From Raillietiella orientalis (lineage: Eukaryota): 64,000 nt of DNA. Of this stretch, positions 1 to 45,884 are shown piece after piece; position 1 is the stretch's first letter, and each line of letters starts with the position of its first letter. A program made the translations under genes and the position numbers. The stretch is from the NCBI GenBank assembly GCA_036172245.1, contig JAYWIR010000008.1:1-64000 (forward strand). The letters run 5' to 3'. A model generated the notes under the pieces. That model had not been told where the DNA came from, made no database searches, and worked only from the letters and a program-made list of their open reading frames with translations.

Positions 1-702
1 CCTGTCGCGCGGATGGATCTCGAGGACACGCGGGCGATGGTCGGACAGCTCGCACGGTAACTTGCCGCGCCTGCCCACGCGAGGGCACAGGTGCTCGTCA
101 AGAAACACGTGGTCAATGCTGTCTTCCATCCCCGTTGCACTGGCCAACAAATTACAGGTGTGCACCGCCATGCACACCTCGTTGACCAGGTCACGCTCGG
201 GATTCTGCCCATCTGGTTTCAGGCGAACGTTGAAATCGCGTGCAACCAGATGGGCATTCCGCACGCCTGCTTCGGTCAGCCAGTCTTGCCAGAGGGCAAG
301 GAAAAACTCTTTTCTCGCCCTCCTGGTCATCAGGTCCGCGCCGCTCGGTGCGTACACGTTCGTGACGATCAGATCGATCGATTCGGACCACCTGAGAGTC
401 AGCTGACCGACACGACCGTGATCGCCGAACCGCACGCCCCGAGAAGCGGCCTCGACGGCTGGCCGAAGCAGGTAGGCGACACCGCAACTTTTCGCTCTCC
501 CACACCTGTACCATAGCCGCCCTCCGGAGATTCGTTCGATCTCTTGCGCTTGTTCTGCAGAGATCACGTGGATCTCCTGCAGCAGCGCACGGTCGTGGGA
601 CTCCAGAAGGGCGGCCATGTCTCGTCTCCTGCCGACGTCTGTCATGCCGTTCACGTTCGAAACGGCGATGCGCAGACGACGGCGGGAGGAGATTCCCGGC
701 AT
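1..702 (-). pseudogene. Tx1/L1-type ORF2 N-terminal APE endonuclease domain (inverted 5' part of element 1), continues off window
   Basis: Minus-strand translation from ATG at 702: MPGISSRRRLRIAVSNVNG...LLQEIH...NVYAP...RDFN; after a frameshift near 125 comes SIDHVF...LSDH. These are the APE/EEP motifs of non-LTR elements. Confidence 0.9.
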
Positions 703-716
703 TACTGCTGGGAAGA

Positions 717-2378
717 TTAAGGTGTGGGGGAGCCCACCTCTTGCGAGGCAGGCGGGATGTCCATGGGGGTTTCGGCCTTCTCAGGAACCTGAGGCACCTG
801 TTCGGCCTCCACCCCCTCCATCCCCTCCGTGTCCGCGCGTGGGAGTCTCTCGGGCGACGGGTCCCGCGAGTTTCCCACGCTCATGGCACCCTCGCTTGCG
901 GAAGCCATCTATTTCCCCTCGACGGGGGAGACGAGCTTCCTCGGCTTTGTGGACTTACGTCCAGCCTTCTTGCGCGGTGCCGTGGAAACGGAGGCTGCGT
1001 TTCCGGCCTCCACCTCGGGGTCGGAAGTGGGGGACTCCTGAGGGGAGACCGGACGTCTTACGGCCTTCTTGCCAGCCCTGGAGGGCTCTGGCTGCAAAGT
1101 GGCAGCCAGTTCCTCCGCGGCTCGCTCGAAGGCTACGTCATCGATGGTGGTGTTGATGACGGACGCCGCCGCCGGCTCGCTCCCCTCGCTGTTGACAGAG
1201 TCAACAGAGGGGAGGTCGTCGGTAGCGGCGAGTTCTTTCTGACAGCGTTCGGCAACATCGAGAACGCGTTCGACAACGACGCTGCACTCTTTAATTATCG
1301 CGCTACCCTGCTCTTTCTTCTTCTGTTGGTAGGCGATTTTTTTTTCCATCCTCCTCTCCTTCTTTGATTTTTTGGCCGTTGCCACTTGCCACCCAGTCTC
1401 CTGACCGGCTCCCTCAACTTTTTCGGCGTTGGTCGCCGGGGTCTCGGGTGCGGCCTGGGTCTTGGGTTTGGGTGGCACAGCCTTCGCGGCAGCTTTCGCC
1501 GCCAGCCTTTTCTGCAAAGGCCGGGCGCGTTTTTTAAGGTTTCTCTTGGAAACCACATGCACTGCTGCTTTAGGGCACACCTCCCTCGTGTGTCCCATGG
1601 TTTTGCATACTTGGCACTGCACGTTGGGACACCTCTTTTTGAGGTGGCCCGACGTATTGCAGAAGCCGCAGTATTTCGGCTTCCCCACATACCAGAGGTC
1701 GACGGTTTCGCCTTCGACCACCAGTTTGTGGGGAAGAGTGCAGCCCTCCCGAACGGTCACGCGCGCAGCCGTGAGGCCGTGCTGCAGCCCCGTGTAGTCC
1801 TCGAAAGGACTAACTTTCGTCGACTGCGCGTGGACCGTTCCAAATTGTTCTAGCGCGGCGCGAACCTGTTCCTTTCGCATCCTTGCGGTAACACCTAACA
1901 GGTGGACCACCATGCTGCGGTCCGCCGTAATAGGGAGGAGCCTGCGCGTCCCCATCAACACGGGGGTTTTAAGCAGTCGTTGGGCCAGCTCTGCTTGTTT
2001 GCAGATGACCTCAACGTACTGACCCCCGCTGCGGATGGTCATAGCGCTGAGCTCCTCCTCTTTCACATCGAGAGCGCGCATGCCCTTCGAGAAAGCGCGC
2101 GCGCTCTCTAAAGAATATAGATTGCCTACCTTGTAGAACAATGAGGGGTTGTACCCCTCCTCTACATAGGCCGACAATTCCGCCGCGTCTGCTGGCGATG
2201 GCGCCGACACAACGGCGCTCCACGCCCGCGCTGCAGCGGGGATCGATTCTGTGGGTGCGGATGCCCCCACCTCCATCGCCTCTGGGGGCGACGTTACCGC
2301 CGCCCCATGGCTCTCCATCGCCTCTGGGGGCGGCGTTGCCGCTGCCACCTGGCCATCCCTGGTGGTCGCGTCAGGCAT
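717..2378 (-). pseudogene. Tx1/L1-type ORF1 (Gag-like, two CCHC zinc knuckles) with one in-frame TAG at 909-911
   Basis: Starts MPDATT at 2378, the same start as the sibling at 6924. Contains CGFCNTSGHLKKRC and CQVCKTMGHTREVC, then a K/R-rich tail. The 717-908 ORF continues in the same frame straight after the TAG, and the sibling at about 9180-9530 aligns through this position. Confidence 0.88.
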
Positions 2379-2475
2379 CGCTGCCTGATCGACCACCGAA
2401 CCACACGACGCTTGCACTGGGGGAGACTTCCTGGCACGAGGAGCACCGAGAAAACACGTCCACCCTGGAGCACGG

Positions 2476-4640
2476 AAGGCGTTCGATTGCGTCGATCAGA
2501 ATCTCCTTCTGGAGCTTCTGAATCGCTTGGGCTTCCCGGCCTCATTAGTGGCCTATTTGCGCTCCTGCTGGCGCGACGCGCTCATCAACTTTACTTTCAG
2601 CGGGCAAACCGTGCACGGCGTGCCGGTGCGGCGTGGGATCCGGCAGGGAGACAGCCTGAGCCCCTTGCTCTTCAGTACCTATTTTGAGTTGGTACTGAGA
2701 GCGTACAGGGAAACTCTGGCGCACCTGCCGCACGATTGTGCCGGTACGCCGGCCGTTTCAGCGTACGCGGACGACCTTTTGCTGCTGCTCCCTATGTCCA
2801 CCCCGGCTGCGGCGGTCGAGTTCTTCGACCTGCTGCATCGGGGAACCGGACTTACGGTGAACAGGGCGAAGTCGTCCTTGATGCCAGTTGGTGCGGTGTG
2901 GGCAGGGCAGCAGGACTGGGTCCGTTTGGGGATCCCCACGGTGAGGTACTTCAAGTACCTTGGTGTGCCGTTGGGGGACTACTCCCCTGCGGAAGCGTGG
3001 TCCGGCTGCCTTCAAAAAGTAGAGACGGCTATCGGCCCGTTCCGAGGCGGCAGTTTTTCCTGCCTGAACGGGCCGCGGTTTGGAACACGTTCGCGGCTCC
3101 TCTTCTCCGCCCCCTGCTTTTTATTTGCCCCCCACAGAGAGGATAAAAGAGCGGACAAAGGACCTTCTACGTATCGCCCTTTGGAGCAACGGGAGGACCC
3201 GAGTCCGCTTAAAGGACTTGTGTGCTCCTCGTTGGGACGGTGGTCTGGGCCTCCTGACGCTGGAGCGGCTGGAGCTTCAGCTCCAGTTTCGAATGTCGGC
3301 ACTTGTACCAGAGTTGTGGTGCACCTGTTGGTGCGTCCCTGCACGTCTCCTTCTCCAGCAGGCCACCGGCAAGACGGGACTGACGTCGTTTCTTGCACTC
3401 CGTCGCCGCGTCAACCGATGCGGACTCCAGCTACGGAGGGTGGCTGCGCTGTACCGGAAAAAAACAGGATTGGTCACCTGTCGCCCTTTGAACGGTAGTG
3501 CCTGGTTGCAGGAAACCGTTCGCACGTGGGGACAGCTCGGCGTGCAACGCTCCCAACAGGAACGAAGGTTCCTGTTTGGGGGTTACAGAAGTTGCACGCT
3601 CCGTGAGATCCTGGAGGATCCCAAGGAGAGAGCGTGGGCAGGAAGAACCCCCCTCGCTGCTGCGCTGCCCTCCCTGATGGAAGATCTGGACAGCGATGTT
3701 GCGGCGAAGTGGGAGGTTACCGTTACAATCTCCGGGAAGGAGAAGAAGGTAGGAGAGTGGAAGACGGGTCAGCTGACTGACGCTGTCACCCTGAGTACGC
3801 CTCCCCATGGACTTCTTCGCTGGGGCGCGCTGCTCGACGTTCCCATTAAACGTTTGAAGTGGCCCGTGGTACTGATGAACACCTCCACCCTCCCCTTAAA
3901 ATGTCAGGAGTCGGCTCTCCTGTTGCAGCACTGGGAACTCCCCTGCAACGCCCTCCGACACCACTGGACCAGGGAAACGGTGGACCCCAATTGCGTCAGG
4001 TGTGGGGAACGGGATTCCCTCCCCCACCTGCTTGTGGATTCTGTTGGTGCAACATGCGGAGCGGTGGAATCGCTTCCGCATTTGCTGTTTGAATGCGGTG
4101 CCCTCCAGGGCTGTCTTCAGCCCCTTTGGTTCCGCTTTGCCACTGCAATCGGAATTCCCTGCGACAACCCTAGGGACGCATTGAAAGCCCTCTTCGTTGC
4201 CGACGCCCTTCGGCCAGCGGCCTCGTTAGCAGCCCTGTGCTGCCTACGCGGGATGTCGCCGCCTGGAGCAAGGCTACGGGAGGACCACACGACCAGTGTG
4301 CCATCGAGCCAGCCTTCCAGTTCCTGAGGAGGGCGTCGCGATGGCCTCACCTGGATCCAAGCATGCGGCAAGAGCTTGCCGGCATTCTGCAAAGGATGCA
4401 ACGGCCCCACCAGCTACAGTGATCCCTTGCCGTACCCTCCCACTTTTTCTTTTCTTTTTTTTGTTTTGTTTTTTGTATTTCCTTCTTCCCCCTGCTGTCG
4501 TGGTGGACCGTACCGGTCTGCGAACCGGTGACCCGGGAGGCTCTATGTTTCTTCGTGCCTGGTTGGAGCAACGGTCCAGCCACTGCGCGTCTTTGTTAAA
4601 GTTTATTAATTAATAAACGCCCCGGCGAAATCCGGGTGAA
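2476..4640 (+). mobile_element. Element 1 sense part: RT (from KAFD) to Zn finger, 3'UTR and terminus
   Basis: KAFDCVDQ, GIRQGDSLSPLLF, YADD, FKYLG, GGLG and CxxC..HL..C motifs. Frameshifts near 3055 and 4255; stop at 4420-4422; T-rich UTR; terminal motif at 4612-4640. Confidence 0.92.
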
Positions 4641-4950
4641 AATCGAACGCCTTGTGGAGGTAGACTGCGACCGCCAAGCCACTCGGTGTTCCCTCCTGCC
4701 GTCGGTGCGTGTTCTTCTTGCCTGCAGCTGTGACTTTCGCCGCGGCCAGGCTTTGCTGCGCCACGACTTCCTTCAGCTGCTTCCAGGAACGTTAGAAAAG
4801 GATGTTCGCCTCAATGGATCGTCCGGGAACCGCGTAAGTTTGTTCCGGGCTCAACACGGATTCCGCGATATTTCTATGCCGCGCGACCCACAGCTTGGAA
4901 AACTTGTCGTCCAAGTTCACCAGGGTGATCGGACGCCAGTTTTTAAGTAT
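4641..4950 (-). mobile_element. Antisense RT fragment (WRPITL...PGRSI...KAFD), flank and apparent target of element 1
   Basis: Minus strand reads NWRPITLVNLDDK..SPEQTYAVPGRSIEANI and then LAVAVYLHKAFD. Confidence 0.85.
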
Positions 4951-5875
4951 AGTGGAGGAGCTGTTGCAAGACCAGGACAAGTGTACCCGCCTAGCTGTTA
5001 CGCCCCTCGCCTCAGCACTGTCCACTTTGATGGTTCGAGACGACAGTGACCTACCGGCGAGGTGGGAGTTCGCTTGCGCTATCGCAGGCAAAACCCGACT
5101 TCTGGGCGGCTCGAGAACCTGCAAGCTGGCAGACGCTGCCACGCCTCGCATTAGTGCCAAGGGACTTCGGTGGAGCGAGCTTCTCGGATTGCCCTCCGAA
5201 GACCTTGTGGTCCCTTTAGCGTGTTTGGACGCGACTGTGTTCCTTCTTCGGTGGAAACAGGACGCTTTTCTGCTGGTGCTTTGAAGTCTGTATTGCAACC
5301 AGCGCGCGCACCTGGTTTCCGGGGAAGTCGCTTCCCCGAACTGTGCAACATGCGGAGCGGTGGAATCGCTTCCGCATTTGCTGTTTGAATGCGGTGCCCT
5401 CCAGGGCTGTCTTCAGCGCTCCTGCATCCCGGACACACCACAATGGATTGGATGAGCCGCTTCTTCACGAGTGGCGGTCTTTCTCTGGGAGCAGTCGTCG
5501 CAATCATCTGCTGCGTCCTCGCCATTGTCAAGGCCCGCCACGTATTGAAGCTGTAAGCGGTCTCAACATCCGTCCCCGACATGGCAGCCTGCAATCTGCA
5601 ACTGGCTGCTGGGTGGCCACACCTTAACGCAGAAGTGAGGTCAGAGGTTGCCGGCATTCACCACCAGGTCTGAGACTACGAACGGATGCAACTGCAGACC
5701 TCTATCCCTACCCTCCCACCATATTTATATATTTATTTTCCCCTCCCTCCGTTTCAAACTCTCAGTGTGCCCGGCCTGCTTGTCGGTAACCCTACTCCCC
5801 ATCTTCTCTTCCCCTTGCCTGGAAACGAGATTGCCAAATGATTTCAATAATAAACGTCCCGACGCAACCGGGTAA
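4951..5875 (+). mobile_element. 5'-truncated element 2 (ORF2 C-terminus, 3'UTR subfamily B, terminus)
   Basis: Homologous to 7860-8949 and 23760-24700. Has the Zn finger and the terminal motif at 5849-5875. Confidence 0.8.
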
Positions 5876-7020
5876 TAAACGACAACTCAGCAACTTTTAA
5901 TTTTTTCGCTGCGCGGTGTTGTTTTGCTCCGTTTCTCGACGTTCTGTGCCTGTTTGGCATTTTTCTTTTTGGAGTTGACCTCATGCCAACCTGGCTCTTG
6001 GCCGTCGCCCTCGACTTTCTCGGCGTTTTCTGCCGGGTCTCGGAGCTGGCCTTCGCCTTGGTGGCGGAGGTTACCTCCTTATCTGCAGCTCGAGCTGCTA
6101 GCTTCTTTCGTTCTTTGCTGCGCGCTTTCTTGCGTTTCGGGCGGACGCGACACGGATTAAATTTTGGGGGCACACACGACGAGTGTGTCCCGCTTGCTTG
6201 CATTGCTGGCACTACGCTCGGACACCGCATTTGTGGTGTCCAAAACTGCTGCATCAGCCGCAGAACTTGGGTTTTCCCACGTAGCACACGTCAACGGATT
6301 CAGCGTGGAAGCACAGTTTGTGGGGAAATCGAACTTCTTGAGAACTGTGACGCGCTGCAGCGAGGCCGCCAAGCACCCCGTTGTAATCCACGAACGGAGT
6401 GGGCTTGCCCCACAGCGCGTGCACAGTGGCGAATTTTTCCATTTCGTTCCGGACGGCCTCCTTAATCATCCGGAACGTTATTTCGGTCAGGTGAACAATC
6501 ACAGACCTGTCCTCCGTTATCAGAAGGAGCCTTTGGCTTCCCATCAGCACAGTGATTCCAAGGATTCTCTGCGCAAGAGTTGCCTCTTTGCAGATGACTT
6601 CCACAAACTGTCCCCCGCTTCTGATGGGCATCGCCAGAAGCTCCTCTTGTTGAACGCCGAGAGCGCGCATCGCCTGCGAAAAGGCACGCGCGTTTTCGGC
6701 TGAATACAAACCACCTAGCTTGTATAGGAGGGGTAAGTTATACCCCTCCTCCAAGTAGGCGCGCATCTCCGCCATAGCCGCCGGCGTTGGTGCGGCAGCC
6801 ACGCGTTCCAAGCCCTGGGTAGGACCGGGGTCGCATCAGTGGGGTCGGGAGCTTCCACTTCCATCTCCTCCGGGGGCGATCAGGTCATCGCCTCCAGATC
6901 CTCACTGGTGGTGGCATCAGGCATTGTTGCCTAAACCACCAACCACACCACACAAAAGCGCAGAGAAAAAGCACGAACTCAGGAGCGACGACAAAACACC
7001 TCCGAACGCGGCTGCGCGGC
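5876..7020 (-). mobile_element. Degenerate ORF1 5' part plus 5'UTR, antisense
   Basis: MPDATT start at 6924; YLEEGYNLPLLYKLG...IRSGGQFVEVICK...VGKPKFCG, homologous to ORF1 of element 1. Confidence 0.85.
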
Positions 7021-8949
7021 GTCAGCGGCGGTTGCTACTGCTGTTGCCCATGTCCACCCCGGCGGCGTCGCTTGAAGATTTCTTTGAGTTGATCCGTCGC
7101 GGAAAGGGCATGAGCGTCAACAGGAGCAAGTGCATGGCTGCTCCGGTGGGAGCGACGTGGGAGGAACAGTTCGATTGGATCCGCCCAGGGATCCCCACGG
7201 GCAGGTACTTGAAGTACTTTGGCGTGCCGTTGGGCGACTTCTGCGTCTCAGAAGCGTGGTCGGACTGCCTTCGGAAGGCAGAGCGTGCACTTGGCCCGTT
7301 CTCCGGAGGCGAGTTCGTCTTGCCGGAACGGGACAGCATATGGAACACCTTCGTTGCCCCCCTCCTCCTCCCCCTGTTTTTTGTTTGCCCACCGCCCCAG
7401 GAAGTCAAGGTCTGGGCACAGAGCATTCTACGCAAAGCGTTGTGGGACGCTGCAAGATGCCGAGTAAGACTTAAAGACTTGGTGGCGCCGCGTCAGGATG
7501 CAGGCTTGCGCATCCTCGACACAAACAGCATCGAACTGCAGGTGCAGTTTCGAATGCTGCGGCTCTGTGCCAAGCTGTGGTGTACGCCGTGGTACCCGCA
7601 CGCCTTGTACTAAGGCGCTGCACGAGAAGTGACAAACTGCTTTCGTTGCTGCCCCACTTTTGGCACATCAGAATAGGGTTTGGCTTCCTGCTGAGGCAGC
7701 TGTCCTCTCTGCTGGAAGTTCAAAGTTGGGTTTTCTGCCGCCCCATGAACATTAATGCATGGCGGAAGAAATCTTTTTCATCGTGGACCGGTTCCGTAGG
7801 AATGCGTCCTGAAGTCGTTTGACGCCTGCGGCTTTTCCTGAGTTATCCATTGTAGGAAGTCATGCAGGACGAGAAGAATTCAGATCTTCTGGCCGCCACA
7901 GCACTCGCCGCAGCGCTGTCTGCTCTAAGGGCAAGCAATGACAGTTGCCTACCGGCAAAATGGGTATTCTTCTGCACAATAGCAGGAGTGAGTAAGCTCT
8001 TTGGCGGATGGACGACAAAGGAGCTGGTGGAAACCTCCACTCCTCGGAATCGGGCGAAAGGCCTGCTTCGGTGGAGTGAACATTTAAGTGTACCCCTCGA
8101 ACAGATAGTGGTCCCCCCCGTTTGTTTGGACAGCTCCGTGTTCCCCTTGAACTGGAAACAGAAGTGCTGCTCTTTTTACACTGGGGATTCCACTGTAATT
8201 GGCAGCGAAGCATCGTTTCCGGGGGAGCTGCTTCGCCAAACTGTTTGAGATGCGGAGAGATCGAGTCTTTTCCGCACCTCTTGCTGGACTGCGGTGACCT
8301 CCGTGGAATGTGGCGAAGGCTGATTTTAGCCATCCTGCCGCAGGGAGGCACTGCAATTGATGTGCTGTGGCGCTTCTTCAGGAGGAATGGATTTTCGGTA
8401 GGCGCGATTGTCGCAACCATGTGTTGCATTCGCGCCATCGTGAAGGCTCGCTACGCCATGGAGTTGTCAGCGCAGCGAAAGGAAGCTCACTTGTTTGCAG
8501 CTGAATCCATGGCGAAGGCTTCAAGGTGACCTCATCTTCGTGACGAGGTGAAGGAGGACATCGCCGGCATCCATCGACGGTTTACAGACTTTTGAGAACG
8601 GCGTAATCCGTTGACCACTGCGACCTGAAGCCCACCCATACCCTTTCCCCGCTCACTCTGCTGAATTCCCGGTACCATTACTTTTATCCCAGTGCCTACC
8701 TGAGCGATCCCAAAGACTCTTGTCCCGACATTCCCGATTAATTGTTTCTCTTTTGTTTTTGTTTGTTTGTGTTCCCCGTTCCCACACACCGTTCCCAATA
8801 CTGTTATTCTGGCCTGCATGCCAGCAATCTTCTCTTTATTTTTGTTCATTCATCGGTTGGGATCCTGCTTCCCAACTGGTTTATTTTATATAATTGAGTT
8901 TTTTCTTGTTTATATCATATGAAATAAACGTCCCGGCGTGACTGGGTGA
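7021..8949 (+). mobile_element. Element 3 sense part: post-YADD RT to Zn finger, 3'UTR B and terminus
   Basis: LLLLLPMST..YLKYFG..WNTFVAP..CLRCGEIESFPHLLLDC; terminal motif at 8923-8949. Confidence 0.85.
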
Positions 8950-10320
8950 GAAATCTCCTGAACGTTTTTCGCGGTGATCACGTGGATCTCCTGCAGCAGT
9001 ACCTGGTCGAGCTCAGGCAGGTTGTCGGCTGTGTGTCGTCTGTTGCCGTCGTCGCGCAGCCCGTTGATGTTCCAACAGGCCACGTGGATCCGACGGCGAC
9101 AGGTGAGTCCAGGTGTTATGTCTGGTAACCTGGCGGTGAAATCTCGCATCCTGTTGGAGTGGGACGCTAGAAGAGGTTGACGTTTCATCCACCAACTCCT
9201 CGTTCTCCTTAGGTGCCGACTTGTCCGCATTTTGATATAATGGTGGTGTTTTGCCTACCTGTACGCCCTCCTCCATGGGTGCGGCTGTTCACGTTCGGCG
9301 GATGCTGATGGCATTGCTCTCACCCTCCTACATTGGAGTCGCCTGCTCGTCGGTTTGGGAACGTGGAAGATTCCCGTCTTGGGCTCCCACGCTGCCGTCC
9401 ATTTCAGCTGCCTCCATTGCATCCCCCTCGCTCGGAGGCGGAATGCACCTTCGGGGTTTCTGGTACTCCCGTCCCGATTTTCGTGAAGGTGCTTCCGCGC
9501 AGGAGGATGCACTTCAGGCATCCCGGTCGGACTCATCTGAGGGTGCGATTTTCGCCGTTGCCGAACGTCCGCGAGGGGTTCTCGCGCTCGGCAAGCGTCG
9601 CCGCAAGCTCCTCCGTAGCCTTCTCGAAGGCTGTGTCCTCGCTGTCGGCGAGCCTGTAGGGCGGCTTATCCTCTGCGCAAGCAGAGGGTGCGGCATCGCG
9701 CTCATCCGTCTCTGCACGAACGGCGATTGAAGGCGTATCGCCTCGGGTGGTTTCGGCGGGAACGTTAATGCGTTCCAGATTCACCGTGCACTCACGGAAA
9801 GCTTCTACGCGCGGCACGGATGGCGCTTTCTATCCGGTCGCGGTTTTCTTCGCTTTTTTTGAGACACTTCTGTCCTTTTTTTACTTTTTTGGCTTTGACA
9901 AGCTGCCAGCCCTCTTCTCCCTCTACGGTTTTGGGAACCTTGTCCTCCGACGCCGGTTTTAAGGATTGGGGTAATGGCAGCTGTTCTCGGCCAATTTCCC
10001 TCATTTGAATTTTCTCTTTCCCCGCGCGTTTCCCTTGCCCTATTTTGGCGGCCGGGGAAATCGGGGTGGGGCGTTTCAGGCACACACGAAGGACGTGGCG
10101 CTTCTCCGCACACATGTAGCACTCGATGTTCCGGCACCTCCTTCGGAGGTGCCCTACTGCATTGCAGTAGCCAGAATACCGGGGCTTCCTTACTTACCAG
10201 AGGTCGACCGACTGTTTTGCGACTCCCAGCTTGTGGGGAGTCCACTATACGCTTATACAAGGTTTCGGCCGAGAACAGAGGGTGTGTCGCAGGTTTTGAA
10301 TCCTTCCGCAAGATGCGGCT
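8950..10320 (-). mobile_element. Antisense ORF1 C-terminal part and APE N-terminus
   Basis: IHVACWNINGL..LLQEIH; knuckle remnants YCNAVGHLRRRC and CYMCAEKRHVLRVC; TAFEKATEELAATL, shared with ORF1. Confidence 0.8.
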
Positions 10321-10329
10321 GGTTAGCCT

Positions 10330-11745
10330 ATTTTATTTTTTTTTCCCACTCGAGCTTGCCACGACGTTTATTCAAAAGAATGTAAACATCTACAATTTTT
10401 TCTTGTTGTACCATTGGTCTGATCGCGTCCTTTCTGTAGATCTAATCTGCCGTGATACCGCTTGGCAGACTAGTGGGTTCTGCCATGACAGCAAAAGGGA
10501 GGGGACAAACGAACAGAAATGGAAACGAAACAATAAGAAACTTTGGGCAGGAAGGGTACGGGAAGGGATCACAGTCTGCTGGGGGCCGTCCCCTCTGCAT
10601 CCTTTGATGGATGCCCGCAACTTCTTGCTTTATATCAATGTACAGGTTGGGCCACCTGATCGCTATCCGTAAAAAGCGAGAAGCGAAGTGGATGGCGTTC
10701 TTGTCTTTGGCTCCTCTGTTAACTTGGCTTCACGATGCCGTCATCCCACGAATTCAGGAGGGCGCTCCAAGGACTGCGCCTGGCTTCAGGGTGTCTCTCA
10801 TAAAGAGGAGCCGTATTATGTCTCTGGAGTTGTCCCCGAGGGTTTCAAGGGTCGCGAAAAAGCGTCCGCAAAGTAGTCAGAGGACAACAAAGTCCACTAG
10901 TAGGCAGGGGAGGAATTCCTGCTTCAAGCAAACTGCACAGATTGGGTCCACACACATTCGTGTTCAATGATGAAGGCGAGTGTTGCACCAGAGACCCCAG
11001 TGCAACAGCATCAGTGCCGACTCCTGCTTCTTTGAGGGGAGGATGAGGGTGTTTATGAGCTCCGGGAACCACTGCAGGTCTACCTTTGGAATGCCAAGTA
11101 GCAAGCTCAAGCTCATTATTTCGCGAAGTCGAGAAAGTGGGATCGCAGCAACGGTGAGCCAGCCTAGTAGCCCTGAACTTTCCTCTTTCCTGAGATTTCC
11201 ACAGTAAGTTTACATTTTGCCGCAACGCTGCTGCCCGTGTGTTCCCCAAGGGAGGGCACCGCGGAGGCGAGGAAGGGTTAGCCCTCCCGCGAACTCTTCA
11301 CGGGGTCGTCCAAAACCTCACGGAGCGTGCAGTTATGTGCGTCAGGAAACCTGTTCCACAATTGGCTTTTGGATCCTCGTCCACATGGACACAGATTTCT
11401 GCAACTGGGAGCAACCGCTTGCGAGGCGGCAAGGGATCCATCCTTTTTTCACGGCCACTGTCACCACCTGACGCAGGTGCAGTCCGCAATGGATGAGATT
11501 GCGTGGGCGGCGCGTAAGGAAAGATGTGCCACGCTGCCGGAGACTTGCTGGACGTGCAGGTTGGCACGAGTTGGCGCCCCAGATGTTTGCGACTATGGCG
11601 AGAGCCCTCCACTGGGGCTGCAGCTCCATTCGCTCCATCGTCAGGACAACTGGCTGGTGTTTTAGCGCGGAGCCCACACATCCTTCAGGCGGACTGGGGA
11701 CCCTCTTTGCTCCAAAGGGCGTTCCGGAAATCGGATGCCTAACTT
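10330..11745 (-). mobile_element. 5'-truncated element, minus strand, with terminus and A-rich tail at 10330-10372
   Basis: Remnants of ERMELQ, PLKEAG and the Zn finger; 3'UTR type A; variant terminal motif followed by an A tract. Confidence 0.75.
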
Positions 11746-12130: not shown

Positions 12131-14357
12131 AATTCACAGGTTGGTCCCCTGTTGGTTGCCCCCTATAACTTGAAGAGTTGCAAATTAATTGTATGCTTGA
12201 TTTTAAAAATACTATTTATATCAAATCTTTAAAGTGAATTAAAATATTCTTTGATTTATATTAAATCACAAATGTTTTTTATAGCAATCATTTATTATTA
12301 ATATATAATATATTACACTTTAATTGAAAATATTTATATTGTTTGACTGCATATAGTGAATATTAATAGAAATTGCTGAATTATATAACTTGTTAGTATT
12401 AGAAAATCTTAATTTTAAATTAATGCTAGTTAAAAGAAAGTTTCGGTGGGTTATAGTAACTGTTTTGTGTAAGGGGATGGTACTTGAGGCTGTAAGAATT
12501 AAGTGTCCTTTTAACGAGTGATAAGAAAATAAGAAAATGTGAGTGGAACATGGTATAAAGAAAATGTTCATAACTATGGATTTATTTAGTGAGTAAGTTT
12601 GCTAGTCCTATAATTTATCTGAGTATTGGAAGATGTGTTTAAGTAAGTAAATACTTTATTGTCTACAAGTTGAGTTGATATTATTTAGTGTCTATTAGGC
12701 TGCCTCGGGCGGAGAGGATGGCGTCGCCGAGCTTCGCGACCTCAACGAACGGAAGCGAACGATTTTTCAGCACTCGTTCAACGGGAAACCTCCTCCCAAA
12801 AAAGACAGAACTACAGGGGAAACGGCGAAACTCCCTCCGAGGATTAACAACGCAAACTCCTTTCCCGCCGTTGAAATTCCTGCGTTTTCCGGGAAAGGCG
12901 ATCGCGTCCGAACTGTGGAATCTCCCCGGGGTTCAATCCAGCAGATGGAACTGGCAAGGCAGGGAGTGTGTTTGGATGCTGAGTTGCTACGCTTGGATGG
13001 ACCAAACGAGAAGGCTCGTGAGGCAGCTCTTCGCAGCAACTCTACGATAGGGCTTTCCCCATCCTAGTTTCACTGATCGCTTGAGAAGCATGCATTTCTG
13101 GAAAGTGTGGAATTCCCGGGAAGCAGAGTCTCCGGAGAGAATTCTCAGGGGAAAACAACACGACCTGGTAAGGAGGAATGGGAGGAGTATGCGAAGACGG
13201 ACGTTTACCAAGTCAAATACCCGGGACGCACTCCACCAGCCGCAAGTGCGGCATCTTGATTGCTGCTGGAAGAGAACTTCCAAGCGTCGATTACAAAGCA
13301 CGGATGAGGAGTGCCGATGTGGGTCGGAGGATCACCACGCAACCAGGGCAGCACCACGGGCGATGGATGATGGATGTGACATGTGTAGTGAGAAATTCCG
13401 CCAGATTTTCCGCCAGGAGGGAAGTCCGGTACCGAGATCTTTCATTTAGGATTCCGGAGGTCTTCTCAGAGACAGCTGCACATCTTTAGATGCTACGTCA
13501 AAGGGCCCCTGCAGAGGCGCATGATTCACGCGACGCAGACTCTCTGAAAGGCTTGCTCCTCATGCATACATCGCGTAGACGAGCTCGCAGACTGTGTTCT
13601 TCAAGTGATTTCAACGATCTTTTATTATCTGAGCAGATGAATCTCAGCTACCAATCTCTTTGTTTTCTTGAGAATTCATTTTTCCTGTGCTGGCAACTCG
13701 AGCTAGTCGTGTGCAAATGTACGTCGTCATGCTCCGTTCCGTGAGAAAATGGCGTTTCCTTGCAATGTACTTCTTACTGGTATCTGCATTTTATTTTGTA
13801 TTCATTTCCATGTTGCCTTCGCAAAAATTCGCTTCAAGTCAGCGACGCTCTATCCAATCGCTTGGGTTGAATGAGGACTGTCGCAAGGAGGCGTACAGTT
13901 CCATTTTACCGATGAAGGGTCGTTGCGAAGGAAATGCTGCTCAGTACGAGGGGAGCTGCAGGTTCTGCCATTATCTACACGCTCTCGTTTGGTGGACCAC
14001 CATCCGCCATGTTATGCCGAACCGTCTCCAAGCCCATCGCAACTACTGAAATGTCGCTGCGGAGTTTTGCAGCCTTTGCGTTAGAGAAGAGTCTTTGTCG
14101 GCTTTGTCGCTTACGGGGTTCATCGTTCCAGTCTAAGGTCTCTAATTTCCTTGAAGTGGTCAAAGTCCTCGAATGGCAGAATGAGAGGTCGTTAGTAATT
14201 TGAAATCATACTCGCGACTTTCTCGTGAGCTGCCGGGATTTCAAGATGAGTTTCTCAGCCGCAGAGTTCCAAGATGCTTTCCTCGCGTTTATGGATCACA
14301 ATGGGAAAAACTTCCCCCCTGGCAACGTCTGCTGTGACTTCACCGTAGTCCGAGATG

Positions 14358-14380
14358 GAGAGAGAGAGAGAGAGAGAGAG
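14358..14380. repeat. (GA)n microsatellite; one unit shorter in copy B near 39637
   Basis: Read directly from the sequence. Confidence 0.9.
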
Positions 14381-15129
14381 AAAGAATCGCTTTTTCCGTG
14401 CGCGCTTGTTAAGCGGTCGTGGACAGCACTCGCCGTTTGGTTTGGATGAGACGACGGCAAGGGCGAAGAGACCGAAGGAAAAGAGTGCCGCCTGCTTTTT
14501 CAAACCAAGAGCTCTTCCACGGAGAAATGAGCGCTTTCTCTGGTTTCGTTTCGTATTCCCAGCCCACGGTGCCGTATGTATTCATTCAGTCGGGAGTGGG
14601 GAGGAACGACTACAAAAACAAAATGTAAAAATCCTGGGGAATAGGGCAAGGGTCTTTGGGTATGCTGAGTGGGCGCCGGGATGTATTCATATAATCCGGT
14701 TAAGGTCCGGAGCGAAAGGGAGAGAGAAATGAGAAAAAACAACAAGTGAAGGGAAGCAAGGGAAAAGGTCCACCGATATCCGCCGTTCCTTCCCTTCAGA
14801 ACCGGTGCCGGATGTCCGTGATCTCCCTCTTGGAGGGGAGGTCACCTTTAAGCCATCCTACTGTCGACGACTTCCATTCCGGTGACCTCCCCTCGCGGTG
14901 TCGCCCTCTCCATGACGTGACGACGAAAGTCGTCGAAGGTGCTCCCGCCGCGAAGAACCGTCGCAGCAGATCGCGAGCAGGGTGTCCTCCTGTTGCAGTC
15001 GCGCTGATCCGAACCTAGAACTTTCGGAGGGTACAGGAGTTCAAAGGCAGGTGCGGCCGTGGACACCACCGACCTACACCAAGAGTACCGTTCTAGCATG
15101 CAATCTCTGCGGAAATGGGGGTGCGTGCT

Positions 15130-15320
15130 CCGGTTGCACTGGAATCCGCAGTGCAGGAAAAGCAGCACAGACTCCTTGCAGGAGATCAGGAACGCAGGGA
15201 CGTCCATGCATCGGGAAGGGACCACAGGATCCTCGGGGAGCAATGCTCGGAAGTGGACTCCACCGAAGGTTTCACGTGGCCAGCGTAAGCAGATTGGCAG
15301 CATCCACCGGCTCGTGGATT
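15130..15320 (-). mobile_element. Small antisense ORF2 C-terminal fragment inside the duplication
   Basis: ISCKESVLLFLHCGFQCN resembles LKCQESALLLQHWELPCN of element 1. Confidence 0.6.
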
Positions 15321-15835
15321 TCCCAGGTTACGCAACGTTAACGTCAGACTACATATCTTTATGAAGCGTAATCTGTCGAATAGTCTCGCGCGGTTAGCAG
15401 CCCACATTCCTCTTCCTCCAGGGCTCCGCCCTCGGTCCATGATGGTCGCTCCTCAGGAGGAAGAGCCTATGGCACGAGAATTCCGCCGACCGCAACTTCG
15501 TTTTCGTTCTTGCCAAGCTGTGGGATCGCACGCGCGTGACGGTGCCCGGGGGCACTTTGGAGCGACTGGGCTCGCTCGCCGCCGTTTGTGCCCAGCGCGA
15601 ATCGCACGGAGGACCGCCACAGGGGCAGAACGGAGTTCCGTTCCCGTTTGCGGAGAGCTCGCGGCGCCCAATTGCAAGAGAAGCAACTCTGACAGGTTTC
15701 TTCCAGACACTATGCTCGGCCTACGAGGACCAAATGCATGACCTGAAGCGACCGGTTCCCGTTGAGAGGAGCACGATTCCTGTAACCACTCCTGAAAACG
15801 TTTCCTTATCCGACCGATTCATCATTCAAACCCTG

Positions 15836-17861
15836 ACGGGAGGCTGCACCCTGAATGCAGCCGTTGGGCAGAATTTCAACACTGCTGTTCTAAGCACTCC
15901 CAATTTCCCAGCCAACTTTCCTGCCAACACACTGTGCGTTCTGGAGCTTCAGGTAAGAGCGTCCTCCCCAACTGAAGACCTGCTGACCTCCTGCCTGAAC
16001 TCAGCCTCAGAACCCATGGGTGTCTCCGGAGAATGTCTTTGGTGTCTTCGCAGCCACTTTCCAGCTCGGAGCGGGTGGCCTGCTCACCCTTGAGGACACT
16101 CTGCGTGTGAGAGAGTGAGGTTCCCCCTACCGCTCTTTCTTTCTTTGGATAGTTAGGGGATTCCGTTGCAAACTAGCAGTTCAAAAGAATCGCTTCCGTA
16201 CGGAAGCCGGAAAACGGGTTTCCCTCTCTTCCAGAGTTCGAGTGAGAGGGGATCTTCCGGGGTTCCCGAACATCGCGCTCTATCTGCCTGCGAGAATCAC
16301 TTTCCAAGGGGTTGTGGCTGCTCAAGGTTTCCAGCTCACCTTGAGCACTGTGAGCAACGCTTACCAAGTCACGTCTGTCTGGAGAACCCATCAGACCACC
16401 ATCAGCGCAAGCATGGTGCAAAGTCTCTCCGGTTCCACAGCAGTTTCTCTCTCTACTGGTCAGGGTACGTTTCCTCAAGAGCGCGTCCCCTCTGGCGCGG
16501 TTGCTTTGGAAACGCGCGTTTCGGGTGAGCGCTGAACAAAACTCCTCGCTGATTTGCTTGGGCAACGTGGGTCAAAACCAAAGACAAAAAACTTCCTCTC
16601 GAGAGCTGCGATCTGCAACTGCAAGCGGTGCCCATCGAAATCCCGAACGCCGAAATCTCCAAAATCGAAGCTTGAAAAGATCATGAAAAATAAACGCAGG
16701 TGCCTATCACATACGTTAACATGTGAATTTCTATACATGTAAATATGTAGAAAAATATATATCAGTAAGATCGTCAGTATACATCATCAAGATTTGCATT
16801 TGTTTATTTGAGCTCGACAGCATATATTGCTCTATCTATTTATCGCTATGTGGATTCACATGTTACCTTATCCAATAAACGCATGTGTTTATTTTTCATA
16901 TCCTTTGCAACATGATATTGGAGATTATATTATATCGTATCTTATTTTATATTAATACGTGTAGATTAGTGTGAAAATTTTTTGTGAAAACACATGTGCT
17001 TATGTTTCATAATCCTTCTTACATATGTTAACAATACATTAATGCAAATTATCATTCATTCTATCGAAACTATGCATGCTGACCAGAATGTGCGCTAAAG
17101 AGATTTTGAATTTGCATGTATACATCAATGCATCCATTAATATACATGAAAAGCACACATTATTCTTTATAGTCTTTGCAGCATACGTTAATCTGTATAT
17201 TAATCTGTATATGAGTGTATGCAAATTGCTACATACAAGAAACACGTGTCATCATTTTCGAGCTCCTGCGGGGTTTCGATCGTTGGAGATTTCGCTGTTT
17301 GGGATTTCGACCCGAATCCGTTTGAGGACCCTGCGTGTCCGTGGTATGGGGTGCTCACCCTGCAAAATGTCCGAGCTGAAAACGACCCACGAGCTTCGTG
17401 GGGTCGACGGTGCACGGAGTGTCGGCACTCGTGGGAACCACGGATCCGAAAAGACGACGCGGTTGGACCACGGTTCCCAGTGCTAGCCACGTCCACGCGC
17501 GAGCAGATCGCGGTTGTGCGCATGCGCGAGCACGTTTGGTCGGCACGGGGTGCCGGTCCGGGCGATCGAATCAGATTCCCTGCTGCATCTTGTCTTTCTG
17601 CAGCCGCGGACCAACTCCTGCTCCAGAGTCCACGCCACCGTGACCAGTTTGAATCTTCTTGCCGGAGAAATGCTTTCAGTTGGGAAAAATGGACAGAATC
17701 TTCCACCCACGGACATTTTCACTATAGTGGGCCCGTCCACTTCGAGCTTCAGCGTGTCATCAAACTCGAATCGAGCCCTCGACTTTTTCTACTACACCGA
17801 TAGTAATGCACGAGGAGTGTCTGGAGGATTCACTGTGTTGCATTACTGTTCCATCTACTGA
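15836..17861 (+). CDS. Spliced gene or pseudogene with two divergent CUB-like domains, copy A (5' end unresolved)
   Basis: GGC..VLSTPNFPANFPANTLCVLELQ|GTAAG (donor after 15952); ..FQGVVAAQGFQL..; terminal exon 17604-17861 after ttgtctttctgcag reads PRTNSCSRVHATVTSLNL..SNSNRALDFFYYTDS..GFTVLHY*, which fits the CUB pattern. Confidence 0.55.
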
Positions 17862-20800
17862 AGCTCGCAATGCTGAGCTCTCGCTTTCAGAGCTGGGAAC
17901 CACAGTTAGGAATTTGTTGGTGTTGCGTCTTCGGTGCCCATAAATATTGGGCAGGTGCATTATTTGTGGGTCCTAAATTTTTCTCGGGGTATAAGTAGAA
18001 GGAAAGAAAGTTTCAACCTATTCGAAGCCACCTCTGCACCCTTGGAGCAGTTGGCATTGTTTTCGATCCTCCGATTGCTGTGAGAAAGAGTCCAGCATCC
18101 GTGGAATACCACTGCTCGACTTTCCAGTCCTCCTCGCGACGATTAAAGGGGAAGGCAACCATCCAAACCACTATGTTTTCTACAAAATGACCAATCGTCT
18201 ACTTTTGCTTAGATCGCTTGCAGTGGCCTCTGGCTCCATCGCGTTGCGCTGCTCACGAATGAGCGCCCTACTAGGATACTCTGACTGTCGGCTTCGTGTG
18301 GTCATTCCAGATTGACTCACGCTCCTCAACGGTGTCGATCCACTCAGCTTTCTCCCTTAAAATCCTTCCAGGGTGATGTTCCATAAATTGTTGATTGGCC
18401 TCCGGGAATCGTTTCCTCTGTCCATTCCTGAGAGGAGGCACTTGTAAAGCAACGCTGCGCTGTCCTTACCCTTTATCTACCTCCACCAGAGCTGCATTCA
18501 GTTGCCATTTCTCGAAGGATCGATCTCGAAGGACACTCTATCCTGGAGCCTACGAAATGCCACTGGCGCAAGAGTGCAGTTGTGAACATTCTGGAAGTCT
18601 TCAGCGAATCCAGGGGATGGTGCAAACTCTGATCTCTTCTTTGGGAGTACTTGCACTATTCGAAGGCAATTACCGTGGTTAAACGGACTTTTGAGACAGA
18701 GGCGTCCCCGAAGATCACACGTGTTGAGTCCGCATGGGGTGCTCACGCTCGAGGAAGAAAACCAACTCCAGCGTGTGTGCGGCTCAACATCGAGTGACAT
18801 CCCTTCTCATAAAAGAGGCCCAAAGGGGAAAAGCTGTCGAAGTTTGGAGGAAAAATTAGAGTTTCGAGTGAACATTTTCTCAGTTGACCAGGATGAGGAG
18901 GACTGTTGGGGAGATCCTACATGAACACCTGTGAATGCAGACTGAAACGGTCAGTTTGAATATGCCCAAAGGACGTGAATACGGAATCTTCTAAATCTGC
19001 GTGAGAGATTCATGTGGGAGTGAACCTGAAGCATGTGTTCGGAAGTAACAGCGCCTCAGTTCGGAGATGTGTCCCTATTAATGTCGTTTCCCAGCCACGA
19101 AGACGCCTTTTTTTTGCTGGGGTGGTAAGAGGCAGTGAAGGTTGGCACATTTGGTAGCCATCATTTTTGCTTACAGGAAAAGGGAACGGTAGGAGGAGGC
19201 AGGATTTCCTGCTGTAAGTTGCTCCTGAAGAGACCACATCGAATTCACTCCTCGTTAGCAATTTTGAAAATAGGAAAAGGAGTTAGCAAACAGCAACATG
19301 CCTCTAGAGAGAAGGAATGGGAAATAGGGAAGTGCGCAGAGAACTCGAATCTTTAATCAATCTGAATGAAGCGTTTGTCCTGCCGAACATTCTTTGATGA
19401 AACGATGATGAAGGCTGAAGATAGCAATCTCGATTCGCTCCTTCAGTCACTATAGAAACCCCGAACGGCCGAAATCTCGAATGTCGAAATCTCGGATGAT
19501 CACAAAAAATAAGCATTACGTGTATTCTATGGTTCGCTGTGTGTAATTAAGATTACGAAAACAATGTGAATGCTCCTATATTTATGTACAGTAGAAGCTA
19601 TGGATTCATTTAAACATGCATTTCATTATTATTTATTTATATGGTTTATTAGTTGTTCATATAGATCATTAGTTCATAACATAGGTGATAGAAAATAAGC
19701 AGATTTGCTTATTTTTTCATACACAGTCAACAGAAATTTAATGGAGGATACAGGAAAAGTGCCTTCCACCCACTCCCACTCTTATTTTGTCAGAGTCCAC
19801 CGTCCTCTTTTACTATACTTCCAGATGAGAAATGGATGCATCCGATGAGAACCCTCAACCGCTCTTGCATCACCGACTCCGTCTTTCAACATCCGAAGCT
19901 CTCTTTACAGCTCAAGTGGTGCCAGAAATCCCCGTGCCAGATATGGAGTGTAGCCAACAGACATCTGAAATCCACGTGGATAGTTCGTAGCTCTTTTTCC
20001 TGCAATGTCGAAAAGCACCCATAGCCGATTGGCCAACCATTCAATGACTACTTGATGACTGCTGCTCCGATTTCACATCACGGCATTCGGTTTTCTTGCC
20101 GCAATACAGCGCTTTGTCTTTGGAAATTCGTTACTGATGATGAATTCAAAAGGCGAGTTAAAGGATCGGAAAGTACCAATATCATTATATTGGTACTTTG
20201 AGGATGCTCAAAGAGAAGGAGAAGGCGAACAGTATAGTTTTTGTAGTACTTTTTCGGCGTGTACAGTCACAGTCACACTTAATGTGCGCTCCGCGTTCTT
20301 CACAGTGGGATTCGGATGAAGTCTTTTGGGAAACCCACGTTTGCTGCCATCCCTGCTGCACAACCAGAACTGACAACAACAAGATGAACGATGATGATTT
20401 CATACAAAGTGAAGTTCCTCAGCATCACGGATGGGATGTTTGAACTGATGGGCGATGCGGTCTTTACCAACAGCACGCATGCACTTTGAAATCCACAGGA
20501 GTGAAGAAAATGTATTTTTTCTAAGAAGCATCCCACGTCGTGAGCAAATTACTAATTCCCGTCAAGCCGTTGTGGTGGATGCAAGCAGACTGAATTTTTC
20601 GAGGTGTTCGCGGTCCTTCGCACATCCTCAAACTCCAAGGATTCTATGCAACGCTCTGTGAGAACCCATTTCCAATGGCATCTCTTCGTTTGTGCATCCA
20701 GGGAATTTCAAATTCCTTATGCATTCTGGGAAAAGAGCTTTGGAATCGTAGGGAGGTTGTTTCCGATTGCAGGATGCTATTTGGAAATTTTCCTCCTCCT

Positions 20801-25340: not shown

Positions 25341-25440
25341 CGGTCAGCTAGAGTACGTCTCCTCCCCAAGGGAGGAGACTTGCGGAACGTTGGCAACTGG
25401 CGTCCCATCACGGTAGAGAGTGAGGACGCGAAGTTGCTGG

Positions 25441-26013
25441 TTGCCACCCGGTCACGCCGGGGCGTTTATTATAAATTCTCTATAATTCGTGGTACGAGGC
25501 CCCACTACGGCGAACTCAACAGGACCTGCCGGGTCGCCGGTACGCAGACCAGCGCGACTCTCCTCGGCAGCGGAAGGGGGTGGGGGGAAAAACAAAAAGA
25601 AAAATAAAACATAAAAAACAAAAAGATTTTGGAGGGTTGGGGAGGGATCACTGACCACTGGGAGGAGGGTCCATCCTTTGCAGGATGCCCTCGAGGTCCG
25701 TCCGTATGGTTCCCAGGAGGGGCCATCTGGTCGCAATCCGCAGGTAGTGGACTGCAAGTACGACTGCATGCCTGTAGTGGCTCGGTCTTCTGACTTCGCT
25801 CCAGCACGTCACAATACCGCGTACGCAGCAAAGCGCAGCCAGGGCGGCGGCTGGTCGCAGGGCATCCTGCACGAACAGAAGCTGAGAAACGTCTCTGGGC
25901 TGGCTGCCCTCCTGGATCCGTACGGAGGCACGAAGACGTTCCCACAGGGGTCGGAGGGCAGCACAATCAACAAGGAGGTGGGAGAGGGTTTCTCGCTCCC
26001 CACACCTGATGCA
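25441..26013 (-). mobile_element. 5'-truncated element inserted antisense into an RT fragment, with 16-bp TSD
   Basis: GACGCGAAGTTGCTGG at 25425-25440 and 26014-26029. The target rejoins as WRPITVESEDAKLL/AKLSAERLG. Confidence 0.9.
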
Positions 26014-26094
26014 GACGCGAAGTTGCTGGCCAAGCTCTCAGCTGAGCGACTGGGACGGGTAGCGGAATTTGTGGTGTATGCATTAGTATGATGC

Positions 26095-26860
26095 GTGGAA
26101 TCGCCTCTTGCCGGCAGTTGCGTATAGCCTGTTGGAATGTCAACTGGCTGTGTAGCGAAGGCAAGAGGCGTAGCGTGGCCGACACCCAGCGACCTTTCGA
26201 CCTGGCACTTCTCCAATAGGTACACCTTCTCAGATGAGATGATGTCCAGGAGATCGAAAGCCTCAAAGGGGTAAGGCTACTTTGGTGATCAGGTGGAGAC
26301 CACTCCCGCGGAGTGGCCTTCCTGCTGAAGTCAGCCGTCGCTAATGCGATGCGCACTGTACAGTTCGACGAGGAAGGTCGAGTTTGGCAACTTGTTCTCA
26401 AGTGGTCCGACTCGATCGACCTCGTGGTCACGAACGTGTACGCGCCCAGCACCAGCCACAGGCACGGGGAACGCACTGCGTTCTTCGAAGGCTTGCGGCG
26501 AGACTGGTTGGCCGAAGCAGACGTGCGGCGTGCGCACCTGATAGCGGGCGACTTCAACGTCCGCCTTCTGTCTGAAGCGCCCGACATAAGAGCACAATTG
26601 GTCAACGAGATGTGTGGGGCGATGCACGCGCGCAATTTGTTGGCCGATGTAGCCGATGTAACGAAGAGAATCGACTACATGTTCCTTGACAACCATCTGT
26701 GCGCGCGGGTGGGGACTCGAGGAGCACTCGCGTCGGAGCTGTCCGATCACCCTCGGCTAGTGCTCAACATCCACTGGACAAGCGGAGCTGTGGGTTCTGC
26801 GTGTGCCAGGTGCGGGGAGCGGTAATCGCTCTCCCACCTCATTGTGGATTGTGGCATGGC
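26095..26860 (+). mobile_element. APE endonuclease fragment fused to a Zn-finger remnant
   Basis: IACWNVN, NVYAP, AGDFN, RIDY, LSDH, then CARCGER. Confidence 0.85.
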
Positions 26861-45000: not shown

Positions 45001-45380
45001 GGCGACGCCAGAGGGGTTTTGCGCAGTTAAGGGAGACGGGCGATGTGTTTTCTTTTTTCTTCTCAGAGAGGATGTGTCTTCTTCTGTCAGGAGACGGCTT
45101 CAGCGATGACCTTGGTGAACTCAGGAGTCAGGTTTGTTCTCGAAGCTGCGATTTGCGCAGCTTGGGAGGATTGCCGAGCCCTCGGTAAACTCAGAGTAGA
45201 CTTACGCTGTTCCCAGGTCGTCCATGGATGCGAACCTTCTTCCGCACGAACGTATCCTTAGCGGCAAGGTTGCGTCGCGCTGAACAACCACCTCTGACGA
45301 CTGCAGACGTGGGAGGAAGCAGCAGGAAACTCCAGTAGCCTTGGCAGTCGCGGTCGATCTTCACACGATGTTCAGTTCGA

Positions 45381-45884
45381 TTTTAACCCGGGTCGCCGGG
45401 GCGTTTATTTAAAAAACAAACTTTAACACGCGCTGTTGCTGGACCAATGATCCAGCCACGCCCGAAGAAACAACACAGAGCCTGCCGGGTCACCAGTTTG
45501 CAGACCGGTGTGGTCCACCACGGCATCAGAGGAAGGGGGGACAAACAAAAAGAACTAAAAAGAAACAAAAGAAAACGTAGGAGGGTGCGGGAAGGGATCA
45601 CTGTCGCTGCTAGGGCCGTTGCATCCTTCGCAGGATGCCAGCGAGCTCTCTCTGAATTGCTGGATCCAGGTGGGACAATCGCGTCGCCCTCTCCAAAAAT
45701 TCGGCAGCGCGCTGGATGGCACCCTTATCGCGAGGTCCTCCCGTTGCCTTGTTCCAAGCGCCGACGATCCCGTGAAGGCAGCACAAGGCTGCTAACGAGG
45801 CCGAAGGGCGTCGGAAACGAAGAGGGCTTTCACAGCGTCCCTGCGGTTGCCGCAGGGGATTCCAATGTACCATGCGTCGACAAC
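45381..45884 (-). mobile_element. 5'-truncated element inserted antisense at the RT 'KAFD' position, with 11-bp TSD
   Basis: GTTCAGTTCGA at 45370-45380 and 45885-45895. The target rejoins as LAVAVDLH../QFDCINYELVWKLL. The 3'UTR closely resembles that of element 1. Confidence 0.88.

Follow-up and report, generated by a model that had tools for sequence, protein, structure and literature searches.

Sequence-specific retrotransposons without long terminal repeats (non-LTR) include R1 and R2, found in ribosomal DNA (rDNA), and Tx1L, found in Tx1D. Twin priming, known from mammalian L1, was reportedly first described by Ostertag and Kazazian (2001). Insertion into related copies is described for human Alu and L1 elements: younger elements enter older ones at specific positions and in a preferred orientation, a single-nucleotide self-insertion hotspot is recorded, and self-insertions favour the sense orientation, which is attributed to A-rich target sequence (Levy, Schwartz and Ast 2010, PMC2836564). 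Zepp and Zepp-like elements, which are L1 long interspersed nuclear elements (LINEs) of green algae, form clusters of nested copies through insertion into existing copies, and these clusters are tandem arrays made up mostly of 3' ends (PMC3446292, PMC8226300). Here we describe a LINE family in the first 64,000 nucleotides (nt) of contig JAYWIR010000008.1 of Raillietiella orientalis (assembly GCA_036172245.1), a stretch referred to below as the window. In this family the codons for a conserved reverse transcriptase (RT) motif, KAFD, are struck repeatedly by antisense copies of the same family.

Copies were mapped by tblastn, using as queries the window's own pieces of open reading frame 1 (ORF1), endonuclease and RT together with P0001, a 619-amino-acid (aa) database protein that has an uninterrupted RT from the N-terminus through KAFD (residues 231-234) and is 79% identical to one of the copies, S. 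The family can be classed, from its domain content, as an endonuclease-type (L1-like) non-LTR retrotransposon lineage: an apurinic/apyrimidinic (AP) endonuclease lies upstream of the RT in ORF2 (PF03372, PF00078), ORF1 is separate, and the 3' junctions are target-primed with 16-nt duplications. Beyond the lineage itself, identity to the closest database RTs is 26-37%, and many of these have PF13966 zinc fingers as in plant L1. A Pfam scan of six proteins placed families in two (Exo_endo_phos/PF03372 in N', the left-hand neighbour of S, and RVT_1/PF00078 in S) and none in the remaining four. Strand alternates through seven pieces between 1 and 12 kb, and the family 3' terminus closes every plus-strand piece (Table 1).

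The 13-mer AAGGCGTTCGATT lies on the plus strand at 2476-2488 and its reverse complement at 4641-4653, a pair reported in an earlier note on this DNA and confirmed here by motif count. These are its only two matches in the window even when one mismatch is allowed (approximately 0.09 expected; two were not reached in any of 100 shuffles). Right of the head-to-head junction at 2475/2476, plus-strand sequence beginning at 2476 matches RVT_1 from profile position 77 onward (E 8.2e-13). At the other end, S closes with the conserved 3' motif, a hairpin and an A4 tail, which adjoins antisense RT sequence at approximately 4642/4643. This antisense flank, X, matches P0001 RT residues 133-234 at 4642-4947 on the minus strand and ends at the D of KAFD. 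Pfam, open reading frames and tblastn all agree with the layout described in the earlier note, in which a minus-strand 5' untranslated region (UTR), ORF1 and endonuclease lie left of 2476, plus-strand RT runs from KAFD, and antisense RT follows the 3' terminus. Its placement of the S 3' end at a target-primed junction within an antisense RT copy, at the KAFD codons, likewise holds: the 3' terminus adjoins X at that point.

The sequence of S ends in CCGGGTG and AAAA and is followed by TCGAACGCCTT, the end of X at 4643-4653, which is the reverse complement of AAGGCGTTCGA. The two A's at 4641-4642 most likely belong to the A4 tail of S and not to the host, because GGGTT, AAAA and TCGAAC stand in succession at a second locus near 45 kb and GGGTG, AAAA and TCGAAC at the boundary of S and X; the shared host-derived sequence would then be the 11 nt AAGGCGTTCGA. 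S may start at 2473 instead of 2476, since CGG encodes the R of RKAFD as in P0001. Judged by its divergence, S is a younger insertion into an old antisense copy, because S has 79% and X 46% aa identity to P0001, and X carries an in-frame stop (between the frames 4606-4791 and 4792-5412). The same identities rule out a local inversion of a single copy, in which S would be X's own reversed tail. A shared 13-mer is to be expected where two copies code for one conserved RT motif; what calls for explanation is that two breakpoints coincide on one homologous site.

The second locus, near 45 kb, has an insertion at the same nucleotide. Its host, H2, is a plus-strand RT copy approximately 31-33% identical to P0001; the left side of H2 matches P0001 residues 145-262, with real host sequence ending at KAFD, residue 234. 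The insert, ins45 (approximately 0.49 kb), is antisense to H2, and the junction reads host GTTCAGTTCGA followed by TTTT and AACCCGG. On the comparable strand, the boundary of X and S reads AAGGCGTTCGA followed by TTTT and CACCCGG, so that both S and ins45 are inserted directly after host GTTCGA. The duplication in H2 is ACGATGTTCAGTTCGA on the left and ACAACGTTCAGTTCGA on the right (16 nt; 14/16 identical, 11 perfect), and it occupies the same alignment columns as the 11 nt at the start of S. The 5' junction, too, is built like that at 2475/2476: an antisense copy closes with its 5' end, a short stretch of filler comes next, then the duplication, and host RT resumes from KAFD.

Entry of S into X and of ins45 into H2 are independent events, because the inserts differ in length (2.17 versus approximately 0.49 kb) and are 78.5% identical to each other, as against 67.6% for the hosts. 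An origin of the KAFD-site junctions as duplicates of one ancestral composite was also considered and is ruled out by the insert lengths, the resumption of host sequence after the short insert, and the unequal divergences. The KAFD codons survive in four of the window's RT copies (X, H2, S and H3), and in three of these the break falls exactly there; only H3, at 48.4-49.3 kb, is intact. The KAFD codons are a recurrent antisense self-target.

Table 1. Positions in the window of the LINE copies discussed in the text, with their parts.
Feature	Position	Strand	Basis
N': endonuclease, ORF1 and 5'UTR	1-2461	-	
N' ORF2 start with AP-endonuclease domain	1-702	-	PF03372, E 2.4e-5; frame 1-780 open, exits the window's left edge
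N' ORF1, 487 codons, uninterrupted, two CCHC knuckles	909-2370	-	Open reading frame list
N' 5'UTR	2371-2461	-	Extends to end of homology with Z 5'UTR (alignment)
14 nt between the conserved 5' end of N' and the KAFD site	2462-2475	.	Beyond N'/Z 5'UTR homology
S: RT from (R)KAFD, C-terminal zinc finger, 3'UTR and 3' terminus	2473/2476 to ~4642	+	79% aa identity to P0001 residues 230-425
First nt of S, AAGGCGTTCGA	2476-2486	+	Same columns as the 16-nt H2 duplication
S 3' terminus: AATAAACG, 5-bp hairpin (CCCGG/CCGGG), then TGAAAA	4612-4642	+	Motif search
X: older, diverged RT N-terminus fragment ending at KAFD codons	4643-4947	-	45.7% aa identity to P0001 residues 133-234
Y: another copy, from its C-terminal part to the 3' end, which adjoins antisense Z ORF1	4952-5877	+	
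Z: partial ORF1 and 5'UTR; 5' end same as N'	5878-7003	-	
W: RT from just past YADD to 3' end; preceded by ~25 nt at 7004-7028	7029-8948	+	P0001 residues 336-517 at 7047-7592; 3' motif at 8923
V: endonuclease N-terminus and ORF1	8949-10320	-	
Part of V hit by the 3' end of W (antisense endonuclease N-terminus)	8949-9113	-	N' 539-699 matches 8953-9113
U: RT C-terminal part to 3' end	~10325-11647	-	
R: antisense nested insertion in RT copy Q	25441-26013	-	Perfect 16-bp duplication, 25425-25440 and 26014-26029
H2 left half: RT N-terminus to KAFD-equivalent codons; left duplication copy 45365-45380	45027-45380	+	tblastn
ins45: 5'-truncated S-lineage copy, antisense in H2	45381-45866	-	78.5% identity to S over 498 bp
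H2 right half: right duplication copy 45880-45895, RT resumes from KAFD	45880-47305	+	P0001 residues 233-401 at 45891-46388

We favour, with a probability of about 0.55, the reading that 2475/2476 is where a full-length N' inserted into the copy now represented by S (the S-host) at its KAFD site, so that the junction reflects nesting and not inversion. The first 12 kb would then be a pile of LINE copies that inserted into older kin, mostly in antisense, and reused particular nucleotides. At each use of the KAFD site, the sense strand of the host would be nicked after GTTCGA, with a second nick 11-16 nt upstream. Entry of an S-lineage copy into the old antisense X by target-primed reverse transcription is shown by the junction at approximately 4642/4643; later, a younger, full-length and still open N' would have entered the S-host's own KAFD site, again in antisense. 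The sequence AAGGCGTTCGA at 2476-2486 would be the right-hand target-site duplication of N' and 2475/2476 a plain 5' junction, with the inverted 13-mer pair recording two uses of one target and not one inversion. The RT and 3' end of N', the 5' part of the S-host and the 3' part of X would all be placed left of the window, with the 3' end of N' some 3.2 kb beyond position 1.

The 14 nt at 2462-2475 may be a 5' extension of N', filler or, for the last 3-5 nt, sequence of the S-host; the 45-kb insertion has a comparable filler of 13 nt where its 5' end meets the host (45867-45879). Extra nt between the element 5' end and the host, 13-25 in number, occur at three of the four antisense-copy 5' junctions examined (2462-2475, 7004-7028 and 45867-45879), and none are present at the junction of R with Q. 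Such nt may originate from untemplated addition, variable transcription start or template switching.

The 3' terminus of the family is recognizable throughout the window. The 3' motif AATAAACGYCCCGRCG has nine matches with three or fewer mismatches (approximately 1.25 expected; none of 100 shuffles reached nine); behind it come a 5-bp hairpin and then, in place of a long poly(A), a short A-rich tail; Zepp, by comparison, has a poly(A) tail. The tail of U (approximately 10325-10372) is longer than those of the other copies. The hairpin is conserved, although none of its five pairs shows compensatory changes. Antisense family sequence adjoins the motif at six of the nine junctions (S into X, Y into Z, W into V, T into the 3'UTR of O, R into Q, and ins45 into H2) and sense family sequence at one (U into V), while two could not be placed.

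One of these junctions points to a further preferred position. The 3' end of W joins V at the nucleotide homologous to position 539 of N' (8945-8950; GGGTGAGAA followed by ATCTC), and a 3' terminus stands at this same position of N' in a contig of sequencing run X1 whose similarity to N' is 90% or more. The antisense endonuclease region is thus a second reused site. W starts just past YADD, although its 3' end sits in the antisense endonuclease region and the 5' end of Z lies upstream of it. Among the four nick sites that were reconstructed, no clear common motif was evident by eye. The two antisense self-insertions that are visible in full, ins45 in H2 and R in Q, are both ordinary and 5'-truncated. 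T is also a 5'-truncated antisense copy, with its 3' end at approximately 23728 inside the 3'UTR of the plus-strand copy O, and it adjoins the start of the plus-strand RT fragment Q (P0001 residue 108) head to head at 25313/25314. This boundary of T and Q has the topology of twin priming, without the expected right flank, and simple nesting does not explain it.

The visible parts of N' and S do not overlap, and they differ in their state of preservation. On the minus strand, 909-2495 forms an open frame of 528 codons, within which ORF1 takes up 487 codons from an ATG at 2370; its CCHC knuckles were read from the translation, with no Pfam match behind them. This ORF1 has 55% aa identity to that of Z (6119-6856) over 249 aa, corresponding to residues 77-324 of the 528-aa frame, and the 5'UTRs of the two copies are 79.6% identical by blastn (2356-2409 versus 6902-6951). 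N' has no disruptions in 2163 coding nt. In S, by contrast, approximately 1945 nt contain three frame changes (at about 3051-3057, 3110-3134 and 4258) and a 54-bp insertion, and its high-scoring tblastn segments to P0001 fall in three frames. Two of these frame changes lie at homopolymer runs (T5 and C6) and could be assembly errors.

Run X1, the one run with part of the stretch (share 0.14), consists of short Logan contigs derived from copies 90-99% similar to those in the window. These contigs cover N' and S at similar depth and barely cover X and Y; none bridges 2476 or 4641, among the 8 of 120 pieces listed. A search for proteins extending the N' endonuclease further found none. Scanning metagenomes with P0001 gave seven loci, each of them distant, with 22-61% identity across short segments, and a 30-mer taken at the start of the window had no exact match in the assembled genome contigs searched.

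The earlier note explained the junction differently, as twin priming driven by homology. In that account, a single RNA was inserted into antisense X at KAFD and both target ends primed complementary DNAs (cDNAs) that were joined head to head: the nick in the bottom strand primed S, while the end of the top strand annealed to the RNA at KAFD and primed N' to the 5' end. The geometry proposed there works, in that an antisense target presents, in its top strand, the complement of the element RNA, and the account replaces two events with one. S begins 0-3 nt from the site at which X ends, and N' reaches the family 5' end, as Z does. The similar X1 coverage of N' and S, set against the scant coverage of X and Y, is consistent with abundant young lineages, possibly one, and the boundary of T and Q demonstrates that the family has head-to-head structures beyond simple nesting. 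However, both of the fully visible antisense self-insertions are ordinary, and one of them is at the KAFD site itself. In the composite of Z and W, the sense arm starts past YADD, approximately 2 kb from the target in element coordinates, so that a breakpoint equal to the target is not a general feature. S is disrupted and N' is not. The features that define the process (duplications bounding the composite, arms from one RNA, and an inverted arm ending where the sense arm starts) are unseen in the window, which N' leaves inside its endonuclease domain, roughly 1 kb short of KAFD. Because the site was reused in an ordinary insertion at 45 kb, the coincidence of breakpoints is explained without twin priming. 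From this account we retain the layout, the geometry and the target-primed 3' end; a common origin of N' and S from one RNA, with an inversion at their junction, we regard as possible but unlikely. Its description of the junction as direct support for pairing between RNA and target is too strong. A further idea, which we rate below twin priming as such, is that LINE RNA pairs with genomic antisense copies in an R-loop, exposing the sense strand of the host for nicking and priming, and that N' and S are a true product of homology-driven twin priming. Homing of this kind, if it occurs, would account both for the preference for antisense and for the repeated use of the KAFD and endonuclease sites.

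Nesting and twin priming predict the same visible sequence within the window and differ only to its left, and several points weigh against nesting. The 3' end of N', the left copy of its duplication and the 5' part of the S-host all lie outside the window and are thus unseen. Six successive insertions are needed for 1-9 kb, each in antisense into the previous one. That N' is younger than S fits the disruption counts only weakly: the chance that all three to four disruptions would fall in S is estimated at 0.05-0.1, and the frame changes at the T5 and C6 runs may not be real. No clear motif shared by the four reconstructed nick sites explains the site preference, and the boundary of T and Q at 25313/25314 indicates that other rearrangements occur in these clusters. 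Another rearrangement could instead have placed the 5' end of N' beside S: twin priming of the classical kind whose breakpoint fell there by chance, or, later, a deletion, an inversion or the repair of a double-strand break within a decaying repeat cluster. We consider such rearrangements unlikely: the boundary of T and Q, a fusion of endonuclease to zinc finger at approximately 26774 and a 75-bp patch shared by S and Y are not explained by simple nesting, but a random breakpoint within a few nt of the KAFD site has an estimated chance of only about 1 in 1000 for an element of approximately 6 kb, and N' ends at the family's natural 5' end. An assembly chimera between repeat copies at 2475/2476 seems very improbable, and the least probable of these alternatives. 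The region is dense in repeats, the 75-bp patch is 100% identical between copies that are otherwise approximately 65% similar, and the two homopolymer frame changes would suit such an error; nonetheless, the 11-13 nt shared at the junction are too short to mislead an assembler, the similar junction at 45880 has a duplication, and the window contains no N.

Several other features of the window were recorded. The patch mentioned above consists of S 4047-4121 and Y 5343-5417, 1.3 kb apart, in copies otherwise too diverged for blastn; through it, 54 bp of S duplicate part of the C-terminal zinc finger (CVRCGERDSLPHLLVD, then ATCGAVESLPHLLFECGALQGC). The patch has the look of a short tract of ectopic repair or conversion, and is possibly an assembly or polishing artefact. 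At 26089-26853 on the plus strand, a copy has lost its entire RT, its endonuclease domain (residues 1-230) running straight into the zinc-finger region of the C-terminus, and repeat sequence stops at the end of this copy (approximately 26853). A direct repeat of approximately 5.7 kb (13105-18829 and 38376-44076; 97.6-98.2% identity, copies approximately 25 kb apart) has no Pfam family in its long frames and may be another element or a segmental duplication. Between 52000 and 64000, guanine-plus-cytosine (G+C) content drops from 50-62% to about 30%, and two plus-strand frames there resemble the N-terminal domain of Nup133 (59400-59951, E 7e-16; 60156-60881, E 2e-13), so the G+C content of the retroelement clusters is far above that of the host gene region beside them. 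These Nup133-like frames were the only two with a match in a Pfam scan of 14 other long frames.

The recurrent antisense self-target at the KAFD codons is the sturdier finding, with twin priming possible and less likely. If nesting is correct, this LINE lineage has repeatedly hit a single nucleotide of its own RT gene, landing each time on the opposite strand. Each jump would kill an older copy, making the site harmless to the host genome while dense clusters of alternating strand are built, and a target that is both coding sequence and antisense to the element would be added to those known for site-preferring LINEs. Apparent 5' inversions would also arise without twin priming, which would call for caution with catalogues of twin-primed insertions. 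If, instead, twin priming is correct, the locus would be a natural example of extended pairing between RNA and target directing second-strand priming.

A literature search, which was not exhaustive, found no case of antisense self-nesting at reused nucleotides of RT or endonuclease coding sequence. The locus resembles twin priming of mammalian L1 in that an inverted 5' segment lies head to head with a sense 3' segment ending at a target-primed junction, and in that the top-strand end could prime internally on the RNA. It differs in that no bounding duplications are seen here and the two arms may or may not come from one RNA; moreover, the inverted arm would be approximately 3.4 kb and reach the 5' end, and the proposed primer would pair over the full homologous target and not over a few nt. 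Compared with the human Alu and L1 hotspots, the bias here is antisense (six of the seven 3' junctions that can be assigned), and the reused sites, which belong to coding sequence for RT and endonuclease, have no A-rich tract. As with Zepp and Zepp-like elements, clusters here form by insertion into existing copies (seven of nine 3' ends are in family sequence); in contrast to those elements, nesting alternates between strands at defined nucleotides and is not tandem, and the likeness is one of arrangement. Unlike R1, R2 and Tx1L, the present family has its own RT gene as target, on the opposite strand, and its specificity is partial, as other copies of the wider family insert elsewhere. What it has in common with these elements is that a multicopy target is used again and again at one nucleotide position, the nicks lying a defined distance apart.

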